A stretch of 64,000 nucleotides of DNA from Patescibacteria group bacterium (GCA_023229665.1 JALNYW010000002.1:92988-156987); one strand, 5' to 3'; positions 12,465 to 20,124 are shown, numbered from the stretch's first letter. Notes: generated by a model from the sequence alone, not told the origin. Program-made: numbers and translations.

Positions 12465-12815
12465 ATGTTCAAGGCCATTCGTAAGTGGTGGAGCGATCGC
12501 AAACAACCGTCGATCGAGCCGGAGCCGCTTCCGGTAGACGAAGAGCTCCTGAAGCTTCTCGACGATACGATGAATGCCGAAGATCGGGCCCTGCGCCTTT
12601 ACTACCAGCTCGCGAAACGTGAGCGACGTGGCGAAAAGATTCCGCTTCGGGAAGTCTGGCGACAGCTTCAGCTTATCTCGCCTTTGATCGGCAAGTATGA
12701 GACAGGCTGCCGTCTCATCGACGAGAAGATCGGCTTCGAAAAGAAACATCAGGCGGTGCGTCTGATCGCCTCCCGCCGCCAGCTCAAAAAGCTCAAGATC
12801 GCTGCCGCCCCTTAG
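12465..12815 (+). CDS. hypothetical protein (116 aa)
   Basis: TAAGGAGG SD 6 nt upstream of the ATG. Charged helical protein. The antisense 135-aa ORF has no start signals. Confidence 0.5.
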   Translation: MFKAIRKWWSDRKQPSIEPEPLPVDEELLKLLDDTMNAEDRALRLYYQLAKRERRGEKIPLREVWRQLQLISPLIGKYETGCRLIDEKIGFEKKHQAVRLIASRRQLKKLKIAAAP

Positions 12816-12909
12816 GCGGCTTTTTCTTGCCCAAAGCAAAGAACCCGCTTAAGGTTCAATGCGATATATCATTATATATAGGTGTGTTAAGCTACCGTCA
12901 TCCAAGCCC

Positions 12910-13476
12910 ATGAAAAACGTTACTGAAGTGGAGCTCCAACTTGAAAAGGAGCTTCTCGCCAGGGCCAAGGAGAACCCCGCGGTGGTCGCCGAAATTTACG
13001 ACCGTTACGCGGATAGGCTCTACGGGTTCCTGCTCAAACGCTCCGGCCATAAAGAAACGGCCGAAGATTTGGTCTCGCGCGTCTTCATAAAATTTATGGA
13101 GGCGTTGCCGAATATCGAATGGCAAGGCGTCTCGCTCGGCGCGTATTTGTACCGCAGCGCGTCGAACGCCTTGATTGACCATTGGCGCAGCGCGAGCGTC
13201 CGCATGGACCGCGAGCTTGATGAAAATTTTGATGCGCCTATTACGGAGAACGATCCATCCTGGCACGCGGAACTCGTGCTCGAAAAAGACAAGCTGCTGA
13301 GCGCGATGAAGACTCTGGCGCCGCGCGACCAGCAAGTGCTCGACTTGCGGTTCTTTGGCGGCCTTGAGCCGGATGAAATCGCCGCCATGCTCGGCATCAG
13401 TCCGAACCATGCATCCGTCCTTTGTTATCGAGCTATCGGCCGATTGCGCAAGCACTACGCCATCCCCACCGTATGA
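12910..13476 (+). CDS. ECF-type RNA polymerase sigma factor
   Basis: Sigma-70 region 2 (YDRYADRLYGFLLKRSGHKETAEDLVSRVF) and region 4 (LAPRDQQVLDLRFFGGLEPDEIAAMLGISPNHASVLCYRAIGRLRK). Confidence 0.85.
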   Translation: MKNVTEVELQLEKELLARAKENPAVVAEIYDRYADRLYGFLLKRSGHKETAEDLVSRVFIKFMEALPNIEWQGVSLGAYLYRSASNALIDHWRSASVRMDRELDENFDAPITENDPSWHAELVLEKDKLLSAMKTLAPRDQQVLDLRFFGGLEPDEIAAMLGISPNHASVLCYRAIGRLRKHYAIPTV

Positions 13477-16400
13477 ACGACTTCCTCCACCCCAAACAAG
13501 ATATGACCCCGCCGATTCCGGAAGGGTCGGACCGTCATGCCCCGGTTCCGAAGCCGTTGCAAGAAGCGGCTGACGTCATTTCTTCCATCGCCGATGAGTC
13601 GTCCGAGCCGATGGCTTCCGGCGTGAAGATGCGTCAACGCGCGGCTTTGCTCGCGCATGCCGAACAACTTAAACCGTCTTCTTCTCCTTCCGTTATGCCG
13701 TCTCCCGAGTCCGCCAAGCCCAAGAAAGTCGCCGCCCATCACCCCTGGCGCGGATTTAGCCTCGGTTTTGCCGGGGTATTGGCCGCCGTGGCTTTGGTTC
13801 TGGTTTTTGTCAGTCCGAACGGGCTGACCCCGTTGCCGGGTACGCGTCCGCTCGCGAACGCGCTTTCGATTCCCGCCGCCCATGCCGGGGACGCCTTCCT
13901 GCTCGTGGCGGATAATTCAGATGCGTCCGGCGTCGCCTCGGATTCCACGCTCACCATCACTTCCAAGGTGGATATATCGCCGGAAGTGCTGAAGCAGTCT
14001 TTGCGTATTGAACCGCCGCTCGAGGTGGATGTCGTGAAAGAAGGGGAGGGTACGTATAAGGTCACGCCGAAACAGGATCTTGAGCCGGGCGAAACCTATC
14101 GCGTGAGCATTGAGACCTTGGTCGACAAGGAAGACGGCACCCGGTTGCGCCGCGAATTCTCGTGGGCGCTCCAGGCGAAGAACGACATGCGCGTCCTTTC
14201 GACCATCCCGCGCGATGGCAGCGCCTTTGTGCCGACGACGACCGGCATCGAATTCAAATTGTCCCGTGACGGATGGACCGACGCGACTTCTTCGTTCTCG
14301 ATCGTGCCGAATGTCCCGGGCCGTTTCGAGTCGCGCGGCCGCTATCTCACGTTTATTCCGACGCTGCCGTTTGAAGCCGGCCGCCGTTTTGAAGTCACGT
14401 TGAAAAAAGGATTTGGAGGCGGTCCCGGCGATGCCGGATTGGCGGAAGATGCGCGCATCCGTTTTGAGACGGCCGTCGCCCAGCCGACGGGTCCGAATGC
14501 TAACCAGCCGCCCATGTTCTCGGTGAGCGAATTCCAGGAAAAATCGCCGAACGAGGCTTGGTTGCTTGACCTTGGATATACCGATTCACGCAGCGCCGGT
14601 ACGGCCATGAAAGCCGAAATCATCGGGTATCGCCTGGACGCGAATGAAGCCAAGCGTTTGCTCCAAGATCGTTTGAAGATTCCGACCTGGGCTCCGGTGG
14701 AAGCCGGTCGGTTTGAGGCGTACGAAAAAACGAACAAGACGGAAGCCTTCCGTGCCGAGGCTGACACGGTGGTTACGAATTATCAGCGCCAAGTGAGCAT
14801 GCCGGCCGCTCCGGCAGGTTTCTATGCCGTGCGCGTGACCCCAAAAACGGCCACGGCCGGCAAGCCGACCTGGATGTTCCTCCAGCTTACCGATGTGGCC
14901 GCGTATTTGATCGCGGATGAAAAGCGTTTCTTCGTGTGGAGCGTGAATCCGACCACGAACCGTCCGCTTTCCAATTTGCGCGTCCGTTTGTCCGGCCAGG
15001 ACAAGCGCACCGACGAGCGCGGCTTGGTCGAATTGCAGACCCCGTCAATTTTACTCGCGACCACGACCCAGGCGGGCGACGTCTATCCGTATGAACTCAC
15101 CGAGTACGGCGATGAAGGTACGGCCACCCAAGCCTTCGGGATCGTGCGCAAGACGTATGATGGGTACTGGTTCGAGCTCGGGAACCGCGACGCGGGCATC
15201 TCGAAGACCTGGGGATACCTGTATCTCGACCGACCGTTGTATCGCACGCAGGATGAATTGAAGTTGTTCGGACTCGCGCAGGACCGTGACTCGCGCCAGA
15301 GCGGCGGCGACATTGAAGTACGTTTGCGCAAGAGTTCGTATTGGATTGATTGGGGTACGGGACGCGAAAAAGTCTATCAGAGCAAAACCGTACGTCCCGA
15401 TGCGGCCGGCCGTTTTGACGCGTCCTTCAATTGGAATGAGCTTGCCCAGGGGTATTACTCGGTCGAAGTCCGCCGCGGCACCGAAACGGTCGCCTCGCGC
15501 AGCTTCGAAGTGCGCGAATTCGCCAAACCGGCCTACGCGCTTTCCGTCGTCATGGACAAGGAAGAGCTCTTCGACGGCGAACAGATTTCCGGCACGCTCA
15601 AGGCCTCGTTTTTCGAAGGCACGCCCATGTCCAAGCTGCGCGTGAAGCTTAACTGGGATGGCGGCCAGACCACGGTTGAAACCGATGAAGCCGGCATGGT
15701 CCGCTTTACGGTTCCGTATCGCATGCCTGTTTGCGCCTCGCCGTCCGTGAGCCGCACCTCTTTTTGTCCGGCGACGGTTTGGTTGAATGTAAATGCCGTC
15801 CCCGAAGAAGGGGAGGAAGGTCAGGTGGTTGGCACCGGCACGGTCGTGGTCCAGCGCAGCGAAGCCGGCGTGACCCTGAATGCCCGCGCCGATCAAAATA
15901 ATGCGACCGTAACCGGGAACGTATGGCGTCGCATCTTGGGCAAAATGGATACCGACCGCTCCCAAGCGTGGGCGAACCGCGCCGTTTCCCTCTATATTTA
16001 TGGCCGTCGTTGGGAGCGTGTCCAAACCGGTTTCCGCTACGACCCGATCGAGAAGGTGCAGGTTCCGGTCTATCGCTATGAAGAACGTTGGGACGCGCCC
16101 GTGACGGCCCAGCTCACCACCGATGCGCGCGGCAATTTCACGCATATCTTCCCGGTGGATGATACGCGCGATTATTACCTGATTACCGAAACGCGCGACG
16201 ATAAGAATCGCGTCTCCGAATCCCGTACCTGGGTCTATCCGGGTTCTTGGGGCGGAGTATCGCGCCCGATGCCTTCCGATACGGGCGTCGTGGATGTGTA
16301 TCCGCGCCTTGAACTTACGCCCAAGCCTCCGGAGGGCGGTCCGTATGGATACGGCCTCGGCGAAGAAGTGACGGCGACCTATCTCATGGGGAACCAGCCC

Positions 16401-18794
16401 ATCGAGGTCGCGAAGACGCCGGGTATCTTATTCCTGGTCGGGAGCCGCGGGCTCCGTTCGGTGAACGTACAGAATACGGCGGACATGAAATTCCGTTTCG
16501 ACCAGAATCTCGTTCCGAACGCCGAGGTCCGCGCCATCACGTGGGTGAATGGCCACTTCGAGCCGGTGCAGGCGACGGCGGAATACCGCCGTGAGGAAAA
16601 GAGCGTGGTGATCGAAGCGACGCCGCGGAAGACCGCCTATGCTCCGGGAGAAACCGTCGAAGTGGATGTGACGGCCCGTTTGAAGTCGAATAATGCGCCC
16701 GCTCGCGACACCGTGGTGGCGTTCGGCGCGGTGGACAAGGCGCTTCTCGCCATCAGCTATGACGAAAAAGCGTCGCCGCTCGATTCGATATACGGATATG
16801 TGGCGGACGGCGTGATTTTCACTTCGCGCTTGCATGATGAAGCCTATGACGGCTTTGGCGGCGCGGAAAAAGGCGGGGGAGGCGGCGACGCCGCGCGTCT
16901 CGCGAACCAAGTCCGCAAGAATTTTAAGGATACGGCAGCCTTTGGCACGGTCGTAACCGATGGCGATGGAAAAGCGACGCTTCGCTTTACGGCTCCGGAC
17001 AATATTACAGGTTGGCGTCTCGAATTGGTCGGCGTATCCGCCCAGCTTGAAGCCGGTGCCGGCCGCACGGACGTGAACGTGACCAAGCCCGTCTTCGTGG
17101 ACGTGGTTGCTCCTCCGCGCTTGCTTACGAATGACAAGCCGTTCCTGAAACTGCGTGCCTATGGCGCCGGCTTGGCGACGGGGGATGCGGTCACTTACAC
17201 CGTCAAAGCGCCGACGCTCGGCATTGACCAGCAGGTTCCGGGTCGCGCCGGCGAATCCATTTCGGTCGGCATCTCGAAGTTGGTGGATGGCCGCCATCCG
17301 ATCACGATCTCGATCACCTCCGCCAAGGGCACGGATGCGATCGAGCGCACGGTGACGGTTGTTCCGTCGCGTTTCCTGCGCGATGAGTTCGCCCGCGTGG
17401 ATGCCGCTCCGGGCTCAAGCTTGCCGGATATCGGCCGCCCTGAAGCGACCATCCAATTCATCCCGCAAAACCGCGCCGCGCTCCAGCCGTTGGCTTATGA
17501 TCTTTTGAAGCCGGGTTCGAGCCGTTCCGATGCCTTATTGACGACGCGCCTGGCCGCCAAGTTGTTGCGCGAAGAGTTCAAGGTGAATGACCGTTGGTGG
17601 GGCGATTGGCTGCCGCAAGACGCGGACCTCGCGACGCGCCTGGCCGATTATCAGGATGAAGCCGGCGGCATGCGCCTCGTGACCTACGGAACTTCGGATC
17701 TCGAATTATCCGCCGAAATCGCCGCCACCGTTCCCGAATATGTGGACAGCAACAGTCTCGCCGGATATTTCTGGTCGACACTTGATTCCAAAACCGCCAG
17801 CCGTGAAGTACAAATCCAGGCTCTGGCGGGTCTCGCTTCGCTTGGCGAACCTGTCCTTCCTTCCCTTCAGGCGGCTGCGGCGATTCCGGAACTCGGTTGG
17901 CGCGAACAGCTCGCGATCGCGCGCGGCCTCGAAGCCGCGGGGGACCGTGAACGCGCCCGTGGATTGCTTGAAGCGTTGCTGTCCAAGGCGGAACGTCGCG
18001 ATGAGCTGACCTTCCTCAAGGTTTCCGACCGTGAAGCCGATGTCTATGAAGCCACGGCGGATGCGGCCGGCATCGCGGCGCGTCTCGCGCATCCGGAGGC
18101 GGACAATCTCTCACGCTATGTCGAGACGAACTGGGTCGAGGACGCGTTCCCGGTTCTCGCGAAAGCTCGTTACTTGAAAGCGGTGCTGCCGACGCGCGCG
18201 AACCGCGACATCGTGCTCGCGTATACCTTAGGCGAAGGGGAGAGCGTGCTCACCTTTAAGGAGGGAGCGGTCCAGTCCATTGACTTGACCCGCGAAGAGG
18301 CCGCCAACTTCCGCGTGACGCGCGTGGACGGTCCGATTGCCATGACCTTCATCCGCCGCGCCGCCGGCCGCCCGACTTCCAAACCGGAACTCGCCGTGTC
18401 GCGTCGCTACGAAGCCTCTAAGCCGCTCGCGGACTTGAAGGAAGGCGATGCGGTCCGCGTCATCCTCACGCCGGAATGGAAGGCGAATGCCCAGGATGGC
18501 TGCTACGCGGTCCGTGACCATATGCCGGGCGCGTTCCAGGCCGTCGTTGGTTGGGGCGCTTCCGAGGCTTATGGCCTGCAGGACGGCCGTTCCAGCTGGT
18601 ATACGTCTCTGGTCGAGGACGGCGAAGTGACGTTCACCGCCTGCAAGTATGGGACGTGGCGCGATATGCCCATCAGTTATACGGCCCGCGTGGTTACGCG
18701 CGGCACGTACACGGCCGAAGCTCCGGTCATCCAGCACGAACAGTTCCCGTCGGTCGCCGCCGTCGGTACGGATCTCACCATTGAAATCAAATGA
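13473..18794 (+). CDS. membrane-anchored alpha-2-macroglobulin-family giant protein (1773 aa), thioester motif absent
   Basis: ATGA overlap with the sigma-factor stop. Cytoplasmic N-terminal ~110 aa, then TM FSLGFAGVLAAVALVLVFV, then Ig/MG-like repeats. A2M hallmark RKNFKDTAAFGTVVTDGDGKATLRFTAPDNITGWRLELVGVS. C-terminal DHMPGAFQ. No CxEQ motif. Confidence 0.8.
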   Translation: MNDFLHPKQDMTPPIPEGSDRHAPVPKPLQEAADVISSIADESSEPMASGVKMRQRAALLAHAEQLKPSSSPSVMPSPESAKPKKVAAHHPWRGFSLGFAGVLAAVALVLVFVSPNGLTPLPGTRPLANALSIPAAHAGDAFLLVADNSDASGVASDSTLTITSKVDISPEVLKQSLRIEPPLEVDVVKEGEGTYKVTPKQDLEPGETYRVSIETLVDKEDGTRLRREFSWALQAKNDMRVLSTIPRDGSAFVPTTTGIEFKLSRDGWTDATSSFSIVPNVPGRFESRGRYLTFIPTLPFEAGRRFEVTLKKGFGGGPGDAGLAEDARIRFETAVAQPTGPNANQPPMFSVSEFQEKSPNEAWLLDLGYTDSRSAGTAMKAEIIGYRLDANEAKRLLQDRLKIPTWAPVEAGRFEAYEKTNKTEAFRAEADTVVTNYQRQVSMPAAPAGFYAVRVTPKTATAGKPTWMFLQLTDVAAYLIADEKRFFVWSVNPTTNRPLSNLRVRLSGQDKRTDERGLVELQTPSILLATTTQAGDVYPYELTEYGDEGTATQAFGIVRKTYDGYWFELGNRDAGISKTWGYLYLDRPLYRTQDELKLFGLAQDRDSRQSGGDIEVRLRKSSYWIDWGTGREKVYQSKTVRPDAAGRFDASFNWNELAQGYYSVEVRRGTETVASRSFEVREFAKPAYALSVVMDKEELFDGEQISGTLKASFFEGTPMSKLRVKLNWDGGQTTVETDEAGMVRFTVPYRMPVCASPSVSRTSFCPATVWLNVNAVPEEGEEGQVVGTGTVVVQRSEAGVTLNARADQNNATVTGNVWRRILGKMDTDRSQAWANRAVSLYIYGRRWERVQTGFRYDPIEKVQVPVYRYEERWDAPVTAQLTTDARGNFTHIFPVDDTRDYYLITETRDDKNRVSESRTWVYPGSWGGVSRPMPSDTGVVDVYPRLELTPKPPEGGPYGYGLGEEVTATYLMGNQPIEVAKTPGILFLVGSRGLRSVNVQNTADMKFRFDQNLVPNAEVRAITWVNGHFEPVQATAEYRREEKSVVIEATPRKTAYAPGETVEVDVTARLKSNNAPARDTVVAFGAVDKALLAISYDEKASPLDSIYGYVADGVIFTSRLHDEAYDGFGGAEKGGGGGDAARLANQVRKNFKDTAAFGTVVTDGDGKATLRFTAPDNITGWRLELVGVSAQLEAGAGRTDVNVTKPVFVDVVAPPRLLTNDKPFLKLRAYGAGLATGDAVTYTVKAPTLGIDQQVPGRAGESISVGISKLVDGRHPITISITSAKGTDAIERTVTVVPSRFLRDEFARVDAAPGSSLPDIGRPEATIQFIPQNRAALQPLAYDLLKPGSSRSDALLTTRLAAKLLREEFKVNDRWWGDWLPQDADLATRLADYQDEAGGMRLVTYGTSDLELSAEIAATVPEYVDSNSLAGYFWSTLDSKTASREVQIQALAGLASLGEPVLPSLQAAAAIPELGWREQLAIARGLEAAGDRERARGLLEALLSKAERRDELTFLKVSDREADVYEATADAAGIAARLAHPEADNLSRYVETNWVEDAFPVLAKARYLKAVLPTRANRDIVLAYTLGEGESVLTFKEGAVQSIDLTREEAANFRVTRVDGPIAMTFIRRAAGRPTSKPELAVSRRYEASKPLADLKEGDAVRVILTPEWKANAQDGCYAVRDHMPGAFQAVVGWGASEAYGLQDGRSSWYTSLVEDGEVTFTACKYGTWRDMPISYTARVVTRGTYTAEAPVIQHEQFPSVAAVGTDLTIEIK

Positions 18795-19708
18795 CGCCTC
18801 CGAGAATCATTCTCACGATCACAGCCTGCGCCCTTTTAGGCGCGGGCTGTTCGTATCCCGAGGAGCGCGTAACACGTAGCACGCAACCCGTAACATCCGT
18901 GTGGGCACAAAGCGCTTCCACGACGACAACTTCTTTTATTGATGCCGATGTTTTCGCCATTCAAGAATTGATGGCCGCGGCTGCACAACCCTTGCCTGAA
19001 GAGGCCGTTTTTGTTTGTAAGAAATATCGCGCCGGCATCGTGAACCATCATGCGTTGGCATCGGATCTGCTCGCAGCCTTTTTCCGGACGCTAAAACGCT
19101 GCCGGCCGGATGTGAAAACCGTGATCATCCTTTCGCCTGATCATTTCGGCCAGGCCTCTGCCGCTGTGACGACGCATCGCTTGCCCTACCGCGTGTCCGG
19201 ACGAGATATCGAGGTTGATGAGCATTCGGCGGATCGCCTGAAGGGAGCGGTTACGTCGCATCAGGAGCAGGCGAGTCTTTTCACGCGAGAGCATGGCATT
19301 GGTGCGTTGCTGCCATTCCTTACGGACTCTGTGCCGGACGCGCGCATCGTGCCCGTGATCATCCGGAGCCAAATAGACGAAGTATCGCGCGCCGAGGTTT
19401 CAGCCTGGCTAAAAAACGAATTAAAAAATCCCGCGACCTTCGTCGTGATTTCGTCCGACATGTCGCATTATCTGGCGGCCGATATCGCATGGCGCAAGCA
19501 AGCGGAGGACAACCGGGCGCTTCAGAATTCGGATGTCGATTTTTTCATCGCCGCGAAAGACGACCATACGGACAACGGCGAATCCATTGCCGCTGTTTTA
19601 CGAGCGCTCGGAAAAACAAAATGGACTCTCTTACGAGAATCCATTTCGAGCGACTACGCCGGTTCCCCCGGGTTCACCACGACGTACGCGATTGGCTTTT
19701 GGGATTAG
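18791..19708 (+). CDS. Memo-like protein (AmmeMemoRadiSam system protein B family) with lipoprotein signal
   Basis: ATGA overlap with the upstream gene. LLGAGC lipobox. Motifs GIVNHH, ILSPDHF, HGIGALLPFL, ISSDMSHY. Confidence 0.75.
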   Translation: MTPPRIILTITACALLGAGCSYPEERVTRSTQPVTSVWAQSASTTTTSFIDADVFAIQELMAAAAQPLPEEAVFVCKKYRAGIVNHHALASDLLAAFFRTLKRCRPDVKTVIILSPDHFGQASAAVTTHRLPYRVSGRDIEVDEHSADRLKGAVTSHQEQASLFTREHGIGALLPFLTDSVPDARIVPVIIRSQIDEVSRAEVSAWLKNELKNPATFVVISSDMSHYLAADIAWRKQAEDNRALQNSDVDFFIAAKDDHTDNGESIAAVLRALGKTKWTLLRESISSDYAGSPGFTTTYAIGFWD

Positions 19709-20124
19709 GCGGCGACGAGCCGTTCCAAAATTTGGACTTCGTCTTCTTTCATCACGTTCACGTCCAGCTCTTTGCCCAGGATGTTCGCCGCTTCCGGAGC
19801 CAGGTGTTTCTTGAATGGGTGGGCCACATCGGCCGGGGCGAGGATATGGAGGGCCATGGCCACCTCTTCATCGCGGATAAGCTGGCTGACACGGTCGGCA
19901 AGGACATGCGTGAAGCGCTTAAGGCGTTCTTCATCGGTGATTTCTTGGCCGAGTTCTTTTCCCTCGTTATCCGATAGAGCGTCCTTGGGCATTTCGAATG
20001 ACTCGACCGCTTCCATCGAATCCTCAAACGCGAGCCAGAGGCGGGCGTGGAAGTGGTCGGCGGTGACGATCAGGGCGGGTTCGGGGAACTGTTGGAGAGC
20101 TTCAGGGATTTGCATATCAGACAA
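19705..20124 (-). CDS. hypothetical protein, possibly host-attachment-protein / baeRF-like
   Basis: 139 aa, overlaps the gpsA stop by 8 nt. ALIVTADHFHARLW resembles the N-terminal strand motif of that family. Family assignment is by eye only. Confidence 0.55.
   Translation of the reverse strand: MSDMQIPEALQQFPEPALIVTADHFHARLWLAFEDSMEAVESFEMPKDALSDNEGKELGQEITDEERLKRFTHVLADRVSQLIRDEEVAMALHILAPADVAHPFKKHLAPEAANILGKELDVNVMKEDEVQILERLVAA

Follow-up and report, generated by a model that had tools for sequence, protein, structure and literature searches.

Pairs made up of one sigma factor of extracytoplasmic function (ECF) and its anti-sigma factor are a main route of bacterial surface sensing, and single-pass anti-sigma factors such as RsiV and RsiW, the partners of sigma V and sigma W, are released by regulated intramembrane proteolysis. 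Bacterial members of the alpha-2-macroglobulin (A2M) family are viewed as passive protease traps, and thioester-less (type II) members, such as P. aeruginosa MagD and E. coli YfaS, are already known. Here we describe a three-gene unit in which these two kinds of protein appear to meet. It lies on the plus strand of a 64,000-nucleotide stretch of DNA from a Patescibacteria group bacterium (GCA_023229665.1, JALNYW010000002.1:92988-156987; the window, whose numbering is used throughout), and it encodes an ECF sigma factor, a 1773-aa A2M-like membrane protein (the giant) and an exported Memo-like protein. Judging from sequence and gene order, we put at roughly three in four the probability that the unit is an ECF sigma/anti-sigma operon in which the A2M-like giant serves as anti-sigma factor.

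The closest described system is that of Streptomyces venezuelae, where the anti-sigma factor RsbN binds sigma BldN. In the structure of the complex, chain 6dxo_D is RsbN(1-91) bound to BldN, and helix alpha3 of RsbN is by itself enough for binding; an invariant residue, R67, contributes two salt bridges, L70 serves as the anchor, its replacement (L70R) abolishing sigma2 binding, and K63 and Q66 make polar contacts (PMC6101532). RsbN homologues have been said to seem limited to Streptomyces (PMC6101532). BldN represents group ECF121, in which an N-terminal pro-extension is removed by proteolysis (PMC7826278). Our literature searches returned nothing on RsbN homologues outside Streptomyces and no paper linking A2M-family proteins to sigma factors, anti-sigma factors or Memo. 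As an ECF sigma/anti-sigma pair, the unit described here would be one with an unprecedented sensor body.

The three open reading frames (ORFs) that an earlier note on this DNA had proposed are indeed there, the sigma gene spanning 12910-13476, that of the giant 13473-18794 and the Memo-like one 18791-19708, as are the ATGA overlaps at both junctions (13473-13476 between sigma and giant, 18791-18794 between giant and Memo-like); the sigma and giant genes are in different reading frames. The suggestion of that note that the cytoplasmic N-terminus of the giant acts as the anti-sigma module gains support both from the conserved adjacency of the two genes and from a similarity to RsbN, and neither of the outcomes that it had named as speaking against itself, an N-terminus unlike any anti-sigma domain and an adjacency kept in no relative, appeared in the comparisons below.

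The sigma factor (188 aa) consists of regions 2 and 4 only, as ECF (group 4) sigma factors of some 170-200 aa do, and these Pfam and NCBIfam matches exceed their cut-offs (Sigma70_r2, 58 bits; r4, 38 bits; Sigma70_ECF, 28.8 bits; TIGR02937, 97.7 bits). Its best solved relative is S. venezuelae BldN (6dxo_A, E = 1.9e-18), with the next ECF sigma factors at about 1e-9. The BldN equivalog model, TIGR02952, is likewise the best model for the sigma factor of the window and for those of two related loci (L013 and L047), although at 120 bits the window protein stays below the cut-off of 206.45, so by these scores it is a relative of BldN rather than a member of the BldN family. The BldN partner residues Y19, D20, F48 and E41 are kept as Y30, D31, F59 and E52. 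The BldN-type N-terminal pro-extension is absent, only about 17 residues preceding region 2.1. There is an alternative start codon at GTG 12928, and a longer ORF starting at 12859 was rejected, being not conserved and containing promoter-like elements.

The giant is predicted to be a single-pass membrane protein made of an anti-sigma-like tail, a transmembrane helix and a thioester-less A2M-like ectodomain. AlphaFold2 (AF2) places the transmembrane helix at residues 92-113 (13746-13811), and the KPKK and R that precede it indicate an N-in orientation. The topology given in the earlier note, a cytoplasmic N-terminus followed by one transmembrane helix, therefore stands, while the length that it gave for the N-terminus (~110 aa) has to be shortened to about 91-94 aa. 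In the AF2 model of the tail (mean pLDDT 70) residues 1-26 are disordered, and two helices follow, one at residues 27-41 (13551-13595), in which P28, L29 and A40 are conserved and which would be the counterpart of RsbN alpha2, and one at residues 49-65 (13617-13667), which contains VKMRQRAALLAHA and which, from the model and from a profile match in the PDB, would be the counterpart of alpha3, on which RsbN chiefly relies to bind sigma.

The earlier note had pointed to the N-terminus as the place to look for an anti-sigma domain, and a similarity to the class III domain of RsbN can be detected there, short and modest as it is. With a profile of 17 tails the best match in the PDB was 6dxo_D (91 residues), at E = 0.085; with a profile of 24 tails from which the transmembrane part had been removed (A4), 6dxo_D came out on top among 177,635 PDB sequences at E = 0.0047, the next match being at 0.11. 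An hhalign comparison of tail and RsbN gave a probability of 72% and P = 3.4e-5 over 26 columns, and the aligned stretch is RsbN alpha3 itself. RsbN K63, Q66, R67 and L70 correspond to K52, Q55, R56 and L59 of the giant, which are among the most conserved positions of the tail: residue 56 is basic and residue 59 hydrophobic in 24/24 tails. The tail thus has a helix with the conserved arginine and leucine through which class III alpha3 touches sigma2/sigma4, with the caveat that one subset profile (A6) gave no match to RsbN. No class I anti-sigma structure was retrieved at E <= 10 when the tail profile was searched against the PDB, and a search of 1.84 billion proteins with that profile found only the family of the giant and fragments of it, with no other ectodomains at this sensitivity.

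We examined gene neighbourhoods at 44 loci, using one genome per species and calling sigma genes by phmmer, by a hidden Markov model made from the sigma genes found, and by Pfam. The close relatives are, by record name, Candidatus Uhrbacteria or Patescibacteria, and every Uhrbacteria-type locus whose upstream flank suffices (18, and the window besides) has the order sigma-A2M-Memo, with junctions that are overlaps of 4, 8 or 17 nt or gaps of a few bases, apart from a gap of about 76 nt in L015. An ECF sigma gene also lies directly upstream in two Saccharibacteria loci, two Clostridia loci and two more distant metagenomic relatives. Wherever a relative has a helical cytoplasmic N-terminus and enough flank, there is an ECF sigma gene 0-80 nt upstream (25/25), so that the sigma-A2M adjacency on which the earlier note had staked its proposal is conserved across Uhrbacteria-type, Saccharibacteria and Clostridia loci. 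In contrast, none of the 14 relatives in which the protein opens with a short signal anchor or the signal of a lipoprotein has a sigma gene within the fetched flanks, although several keep a Memo gene directly downstream. The resulting table reads 25 to 2 versus 0 to 14; its rows, which are not phylogenetically independent, come from three lineages and include no fewer than three sigma subfamilies. Since sigma-less relatives often keep Memo, the A2M-Memo pair is, on this comparative evidence, the older and wider module, and the link to a sigma factor goes with the cytoplasmic tail.

The type of tail also tracks the type of sigma factor, BldN-like sigma factors going with the RsbN-like motif, and the other ECF subfamilies of Clostridia and Saccharibacteria with other tails. 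In two Clostridia loci (L023, L028) and two Saccharibacteria loci (L024, L025) a homologous ectodomain is joined to a different short tail next to a sigma gene of a different ECF subfamily; the sensor body has therefore been combined with more than one type of sigma/anti-sigma pair. One of the Clostridia loci (L028) has two sigma genes in tandem. Among 301 sampled Patescibacteria genomes a relative was present in 25, including all four genomes of the window's own family.

A bipartite motif, GT(C/A)AT-N16-CGTT, occurs twice per operon, once before the sigma gene and once inside the coding region of the tail, and in the roughly 19 kb around each locus it is found almost only at these two sites. 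The upstream copy (GTCAT-N16-CGTT, 12897-12921) is a candidate ECF-type promoter whose CGTT falls within codons 3-4 of the sigma ORF as annotated; it is present in 19/19 informative loci, with N16 in 17 of them, N17 in L001 and N15 in L017. Just before it lies an extended -10-like sequence, TGtTAAGCT (12885-12893), a candidate housekeeping-type promoter, and in most of the 19 Uhrbacteria-type loci GTCAT is preceded, at a distance of 0-3 nt, by TGnTAnnnT. The internal copy (GTCAT-N16-CGTT, 13534-13558) runs within the tail codons R21-H22 through P28-L29 and is found, in the same frame, in 18/21 loci, where resampling of synonymous codons with the protein held fixed predicts 1.6/21. The first arginine is always encoded by CGT (or is replaced by cysteine, TGT), the next codon is CAT or AAT (CAG in L010), the proline is always CCG and the codon that follows always TTN; in a relative at 30% identity the same letters are produced by Ala-Leu instead of Pro-Leu. 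Because codon choice is fixed, because the same letters arise from different amino acids and because the count so far exceeds expectation, the internal motif is under selection as DNA.

The simplest reading is that both sites look like promoters used by the sigma factor itself, since the geometry of the motif is that of an ECF promoter, yet this account is incomplete. Depending on the clade, the sigma start codon begins 8 nt upstream of the upstream CGTT, immediately downstream of it or 6-7 nt downstream. An arrangement CGTT-N7-ATG, as in the last of these groups and at the internal site of L013, L021 and L047, would yield a leaderless message, and in the window the transcript predicted from the upstream site would begin near GTG 12928, within the annotated sigma ORF. 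The upstream copy is a candidate for the ECF-type autoregulated promoter that the earlier note had proposed to look for upstream of 12910. Elsewhere in the genome two sites were considered as targets and rejected: one at murI/rseP, which lies inside an upstream coding sequence, and one before the gene of a 387-aa envelope protein (C18:190404), which is not kept in same-genus relatives. The latter, third-best among the motif matches of the genome, is 13 nt before the gene (C18:190404-191602), whose product is a membrane protein with a Cys-rich region and a C-terminal part that is Gmad2/GerMN-like by eye only; the site is kept in one relative (G305). In the clade of L002, L004, L005 and L009 the 16-nt spacer of the upstream motif contains a small dyad, ATCCG...CGGAT, in which changes compensate one another from locus to locus; it may act as an operator or fold as an RNA hairpin.

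The ectodomain of the giant begins with a Big_5 Ig-like domain (residues 150-231; 13920-14165), which scores above its Pfam cut-off, as do an MG2 domain (residues 581-680; 15213-15512; 39.6 bits versus 32.8), an A2M bait-region domain, A2M_BRD (residues 962-1093; 16356-16751; 34.5 versus 22.7), and the A2M domain itself (residues 1159-1222; 16947-17138; 36.6 versus 21); a bMG10 match is weak and below cut-off, and no NCBIfam model matches the giant. The diagnostic A2M segment that the earlier note had recognized, NFKDTAAF...PDNITGWR, starts at residue 1150, runs into the A2M domain and is nearly invariant among relatives, and, as that note had also said, the thioester motif is missing: C.EQ is absent from the giant, which has just four cysteines (754, 765, 1677 and 1724). 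In an AF2 model of residues 1140-1773 (pLDDT 87.8), helices at about residues 1334-1574 (17472-18194) form a TED-like domain that lacks the thioester cysteine, followed by an MG8/bMG10-like beta domain at residues 1651-1749 (18423-18719). PGSSRSDA probably occupies the place where GCGEQ would be expected, a placement that does not come from an alignment. Foldseek matches this model to complement C5, C3 and E. coli ECAM at E of about 1e-27, and its TM-score is 0.69 to protease-activated ECAM (4ziq) versus 0.33 to native ECAM (5a42), which, the chain being partial, is to be taken as an observation only. The giant therefore has the MG7-CUB-TED-MG8 build of A2M/C3 proteins without the thioester, and the full A2M domain set, including bait-region domain and TED, is retained over 25-90% identity.

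Two further conserved stretches of the giant deserve mention. Just before the A2M domain there is a Gly-rich loop, GFGGAEKGGGGG (residues 1127-1138; 16851-16886), flanked by residues 1140-1160, which have low pLDDT in the AF2 model; the loop is nearly invariant down to about 25% identity, and it stands at the position of the variable bait or processing site of A2M/C3-family proteins. Close to the membrane lies LSIPAAHAGDAF (residues 131-142; 13863-13898), the best-conserved stretch within the first 150 residues, where I133, P134, A136, A138, D140 and F142 are invariant in alignment A2. It resembles an AxA peptidase site, although cleavage by signal peptidase at the conserved AHA/G is unlikely, the site being about 23 residues beyond the transmembrane helix.

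The third protein of the unit (305 aa) scores 64.1 bits against the Memo family model, whose cut-off is 27, and 80 bits against AmmeMemoSam_B, in Pfam and NCBIfam respectively. Four positions (H86, H118, D223 and D261) are invariant among 24 Memo-like orthologues, and conservation is at least 92% at H87, H168 and H226; given this score and the conserved His/Asp positions of the metal site, the protein is by sequence a Memo family member, in which the Memo cysteine position is apparently replaced (as read by eye, unaligned). All 24 orthologues have a signal peptide or a signal anchor, which places them outside the cytoplasm. The earlier note had called this protein a Memo-like lipoprotein: the Memo part of that description holds, and for the window itself the lipoprotein part is backed by a signal peptide with LLGAGC and by an Lgt gene in the genome, but the lipobox is not conserved in relatives. 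The genome has a second, weaker Memo match (27.7 bits, in a 309-aa frame, C21:137823-138062), which is not paired with an A2M-like gene, since the genome has a single A2M match.

Several observations speak against the giant being an anti-sigma factor, or at least against a simple version of that proposal. The similarity to RsbN is short, covering only about 25 residues; a subset profile made of the ten tails with an extra N-terminal helix retrieved not RsbN but vinculin repeats at noise level; and five N-terminal tails, scanned with Pfam up to E = 10, gave no anti-sigma family. In class III domains such as that of RsbN, helices alpha1 and alpha2 dock on sigma4, where they block -35 binding. 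The window's clade has no counterpart of RsbN alpha1, and the extra N-terminal tail helix of deeper clades (A..LD.LL) gave no significant alignment to it. Some of the conservation seen in the tail, that of RH...PL, is owed to the DNA motif rather than to the protein. No sigma gene accompanies L029 and L031, two relatives whose N-termini are long, disordered and of low complexity. On the regulatory side, a simple autoregulated promoter does not fit all clades, because the upstream motif overlaps the start of the sigma gene in some of them; the motif count over the whole genome is near chance (27 versus about 20), and the genome search revealed no second conserved target outside the operon. One may consider that the sigma factor merely controls the A2M-like and Memo genes, its activity being set by other means and the tail being a by-product of an embedded promoter and a membrane anchor, an explanation that would account for DNA-level conservation in the tail, for the lack of a Pfam anti-sigma domain and for an RsbN match that is short and depends on sampling. 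However, helix 49-65 lies downstream of the motif, is conserved as protein and fits the RsbN contact pattern; moreover, relatives without the tail lack the sigma factor altogether, rather than keeping it as a plain regulator, and the tail changes in type when the sigma factor does. For these reasons we regard a giant with no anti-sigma function as improbable. Still much harder to sustain is the view that the operon reflects passive adjacency and that the giant, like ECAM, is simply a protective A2M anchored in the membrane, without a part in signalling. Bacterial A2Ms are indeed membrane-anchored defence proteins, and the genes around the unit are housekeeping ones, but gene order and overlaps are conserved across deep divergence, the sigma gene is strictly tied to the tail, and the operon carries the shared motif twice, all of which makes mere adjacency very improbable.

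Should the giant be an anti-sigma factor, its tail would sequester the sigma factor at the membrane until an alteration of the ectodomain, which could be its cleavage, its loss or the capture of a ligand, led to removal of the tail, by analogy with other single-pass anti-sigma factors; removal would proceed by regulated proteolysis, probably ending with the M50 protease. The freed sigma factor would then fire both motif sites, renewing A2M and Memo, so that the trap would do the sensing and would also be what the response chiefly produces. One may go further and imagine a consumable sensor-effector, in which attack on the ectodomain, or its loss, removes the RsbN-type tail and the sigma factor fires two promoters, that preceding its own gene and that hidden in the part of the giant's gene which encodes the tail, the latter giving a 5'-shortened A2M/Memo message, and possibly an isoform with a reduced tail, so that the trap is replaced in proportion to damage; we offer this scheme as a speculation that is, in its entirety, unlikely to be right. 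Protease attack is the obvious candidate for the signal, yet the GFGGAEKGGGGG loop is conserved, not variable, and distant from the membrane, and with about 850 residues between the membrane and the bait-region domain, cleavage of the bait would not by itself create a substrate for a site-2 protease, which tells against the anti-sigma proposal in its plainest form as well. A dedicated maturation or a ligand-sensing role is consequently a serious rival: the giant could be an anti-sigma factor that reports surface condition, a bound polymer or host-cell contact, or that is matured by a dedicated enzyme at the Gly loop, with the A2M fold only as scaffold. The missing thioester, the conservation of a loop where baits usually vary, the exported Memo-like enzyme that always adjoins and the N-terminal Big_5 domain would all suit such a role; Ig-like domains of this kind are common in surface-binding proteins, and Patescibacteria are frequently episymbionts. 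On the other hand, bait-region domain and TED have been retained together with the rest of the A2M set at all identities compared, and thioester-less bacterial A2Ms of the MagD type are still considered protease inhibitors. We therefore treat an anti-sigma giant that does not sense proteases as a possibility to be kept in mind, though a tentative one.

The 5' boundary of the unit is marked by a terminator-like hairpin and T-run on the plus strand (12801-12828; GCTGCCGCCCCTTAGGCGGC then TTTTTCTTGC), which ends an upstream 116-aa ORF (12465-12815). This ORF, directly 5' of the unit, has its own terminator and no family match; it was rejected as an alternative anti-sigma factor, as it is next to the operon in no relative, and there is no other anti-sigma candidate within the operon. 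At the other end, a convergent 139-aa ORF on the minus strand (19705-20124) overlaps the Memo stop by 4 nt and has a sub-threshold match to Host_attach (PF10116). The housekeeping neighbours comprise a CCA-adding enzyme gene, hflX, gpsA and tRNA-Arg. The genome, 1.34 Mb spread over 29 contigs, yields seven matches to sigma-70 region 2, one to A2M and two to Memo, and it encodes an RseP-type (site-2 type) M50 protease besides Lgt. The stretch is also present in independent groundwater metagenome runs, all of them DNA, with no RNA runs among them.

If the proposal is correct, it would extend the class III (RsbN-type) anti-sigma domain beyond Streptomyces to a distant phylum, and A2M and anti-sigma parts in one polypeptide would directly link envelope attack to gene expression. 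The consumable sensor-effector, if real, would be the first bacterial case of an A2M-family protein that takes part in signalling. Patescibacteria have tiny genomes with few regulators, which makes the ones that they retain telling. Through its constant Memo-like partner the unit offers a way into a family of bacterial enzymes whose function is unknown, and the embedded motif would be a clear example of regulatory DNA that constrains protein sequence.

With type I A2Ms (E. coli ECAM/YfhM and Salmonella A2M; 4ZIQ, 5A42, 4U48) the giant shares MG domains, the bait-region domain and the C-terminal MG7-CUB-TED-MG8 third, as well as a location on the cytoplasmic membrane, facing outward. In contrast to them it lacks CxEQ, it has a transmembrane helix and a cytoplasmic tail instead of the lipid anchor of ECAM, its partners are an ECF sigma factor and Memo, not PBP1C, and its host has a monoderm-type envelope. 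Type II A2Ms likewise are A2M-family proteins without the thioester that are encoded in dedicated operons, but the mag operon partners are absent here, whereas a predicted sigma-binding tail and the pairing with Memo are present, and the similarity of the giant to YfaS-named proteins is very weak (E = 1e-15 over at most 43% of the query). RsiV and RsiW share the general logic of a sensor ectodomain outside and a sigma-binding tail inside, for which the window's genome has an M50 protease, although the tail of the giant is of a different kind and its ectodomain is enormous. The third protein shares with Memo/AmmeMemoRadiSam protein B (PF01875, TIGR04336) the family match and the His/Asp positions, and differs in being exported or membrane-anchored, in having an A2M-like partner and in the absence of an AMMECR1 or radical SAM gene from the three-gene unit. 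The nearest comparison remains RsbN and sigma BldN (PDB 6DXO), BldN being the closest solved relative of the window's sigma factor. RsbN and the giant are both single-pass N-in proteins, with cytoplasmic parts of 117 aa and about 92 aa, respectively, and the K, Q, R, L contact pattern of RsbN alpha3 is kept in the tail helix of the giant. Where RsbN has a 272-aa external domain of unknown fold, however, the giant has a 1650-aa A2M-like body; its host belongs to the Patescibacteria, alpha1 is lacking in the window's clade, the sigma factor has no pro-extension, and the genes are coupled by overlapping ATGA, with a Memo-like partner at their side.

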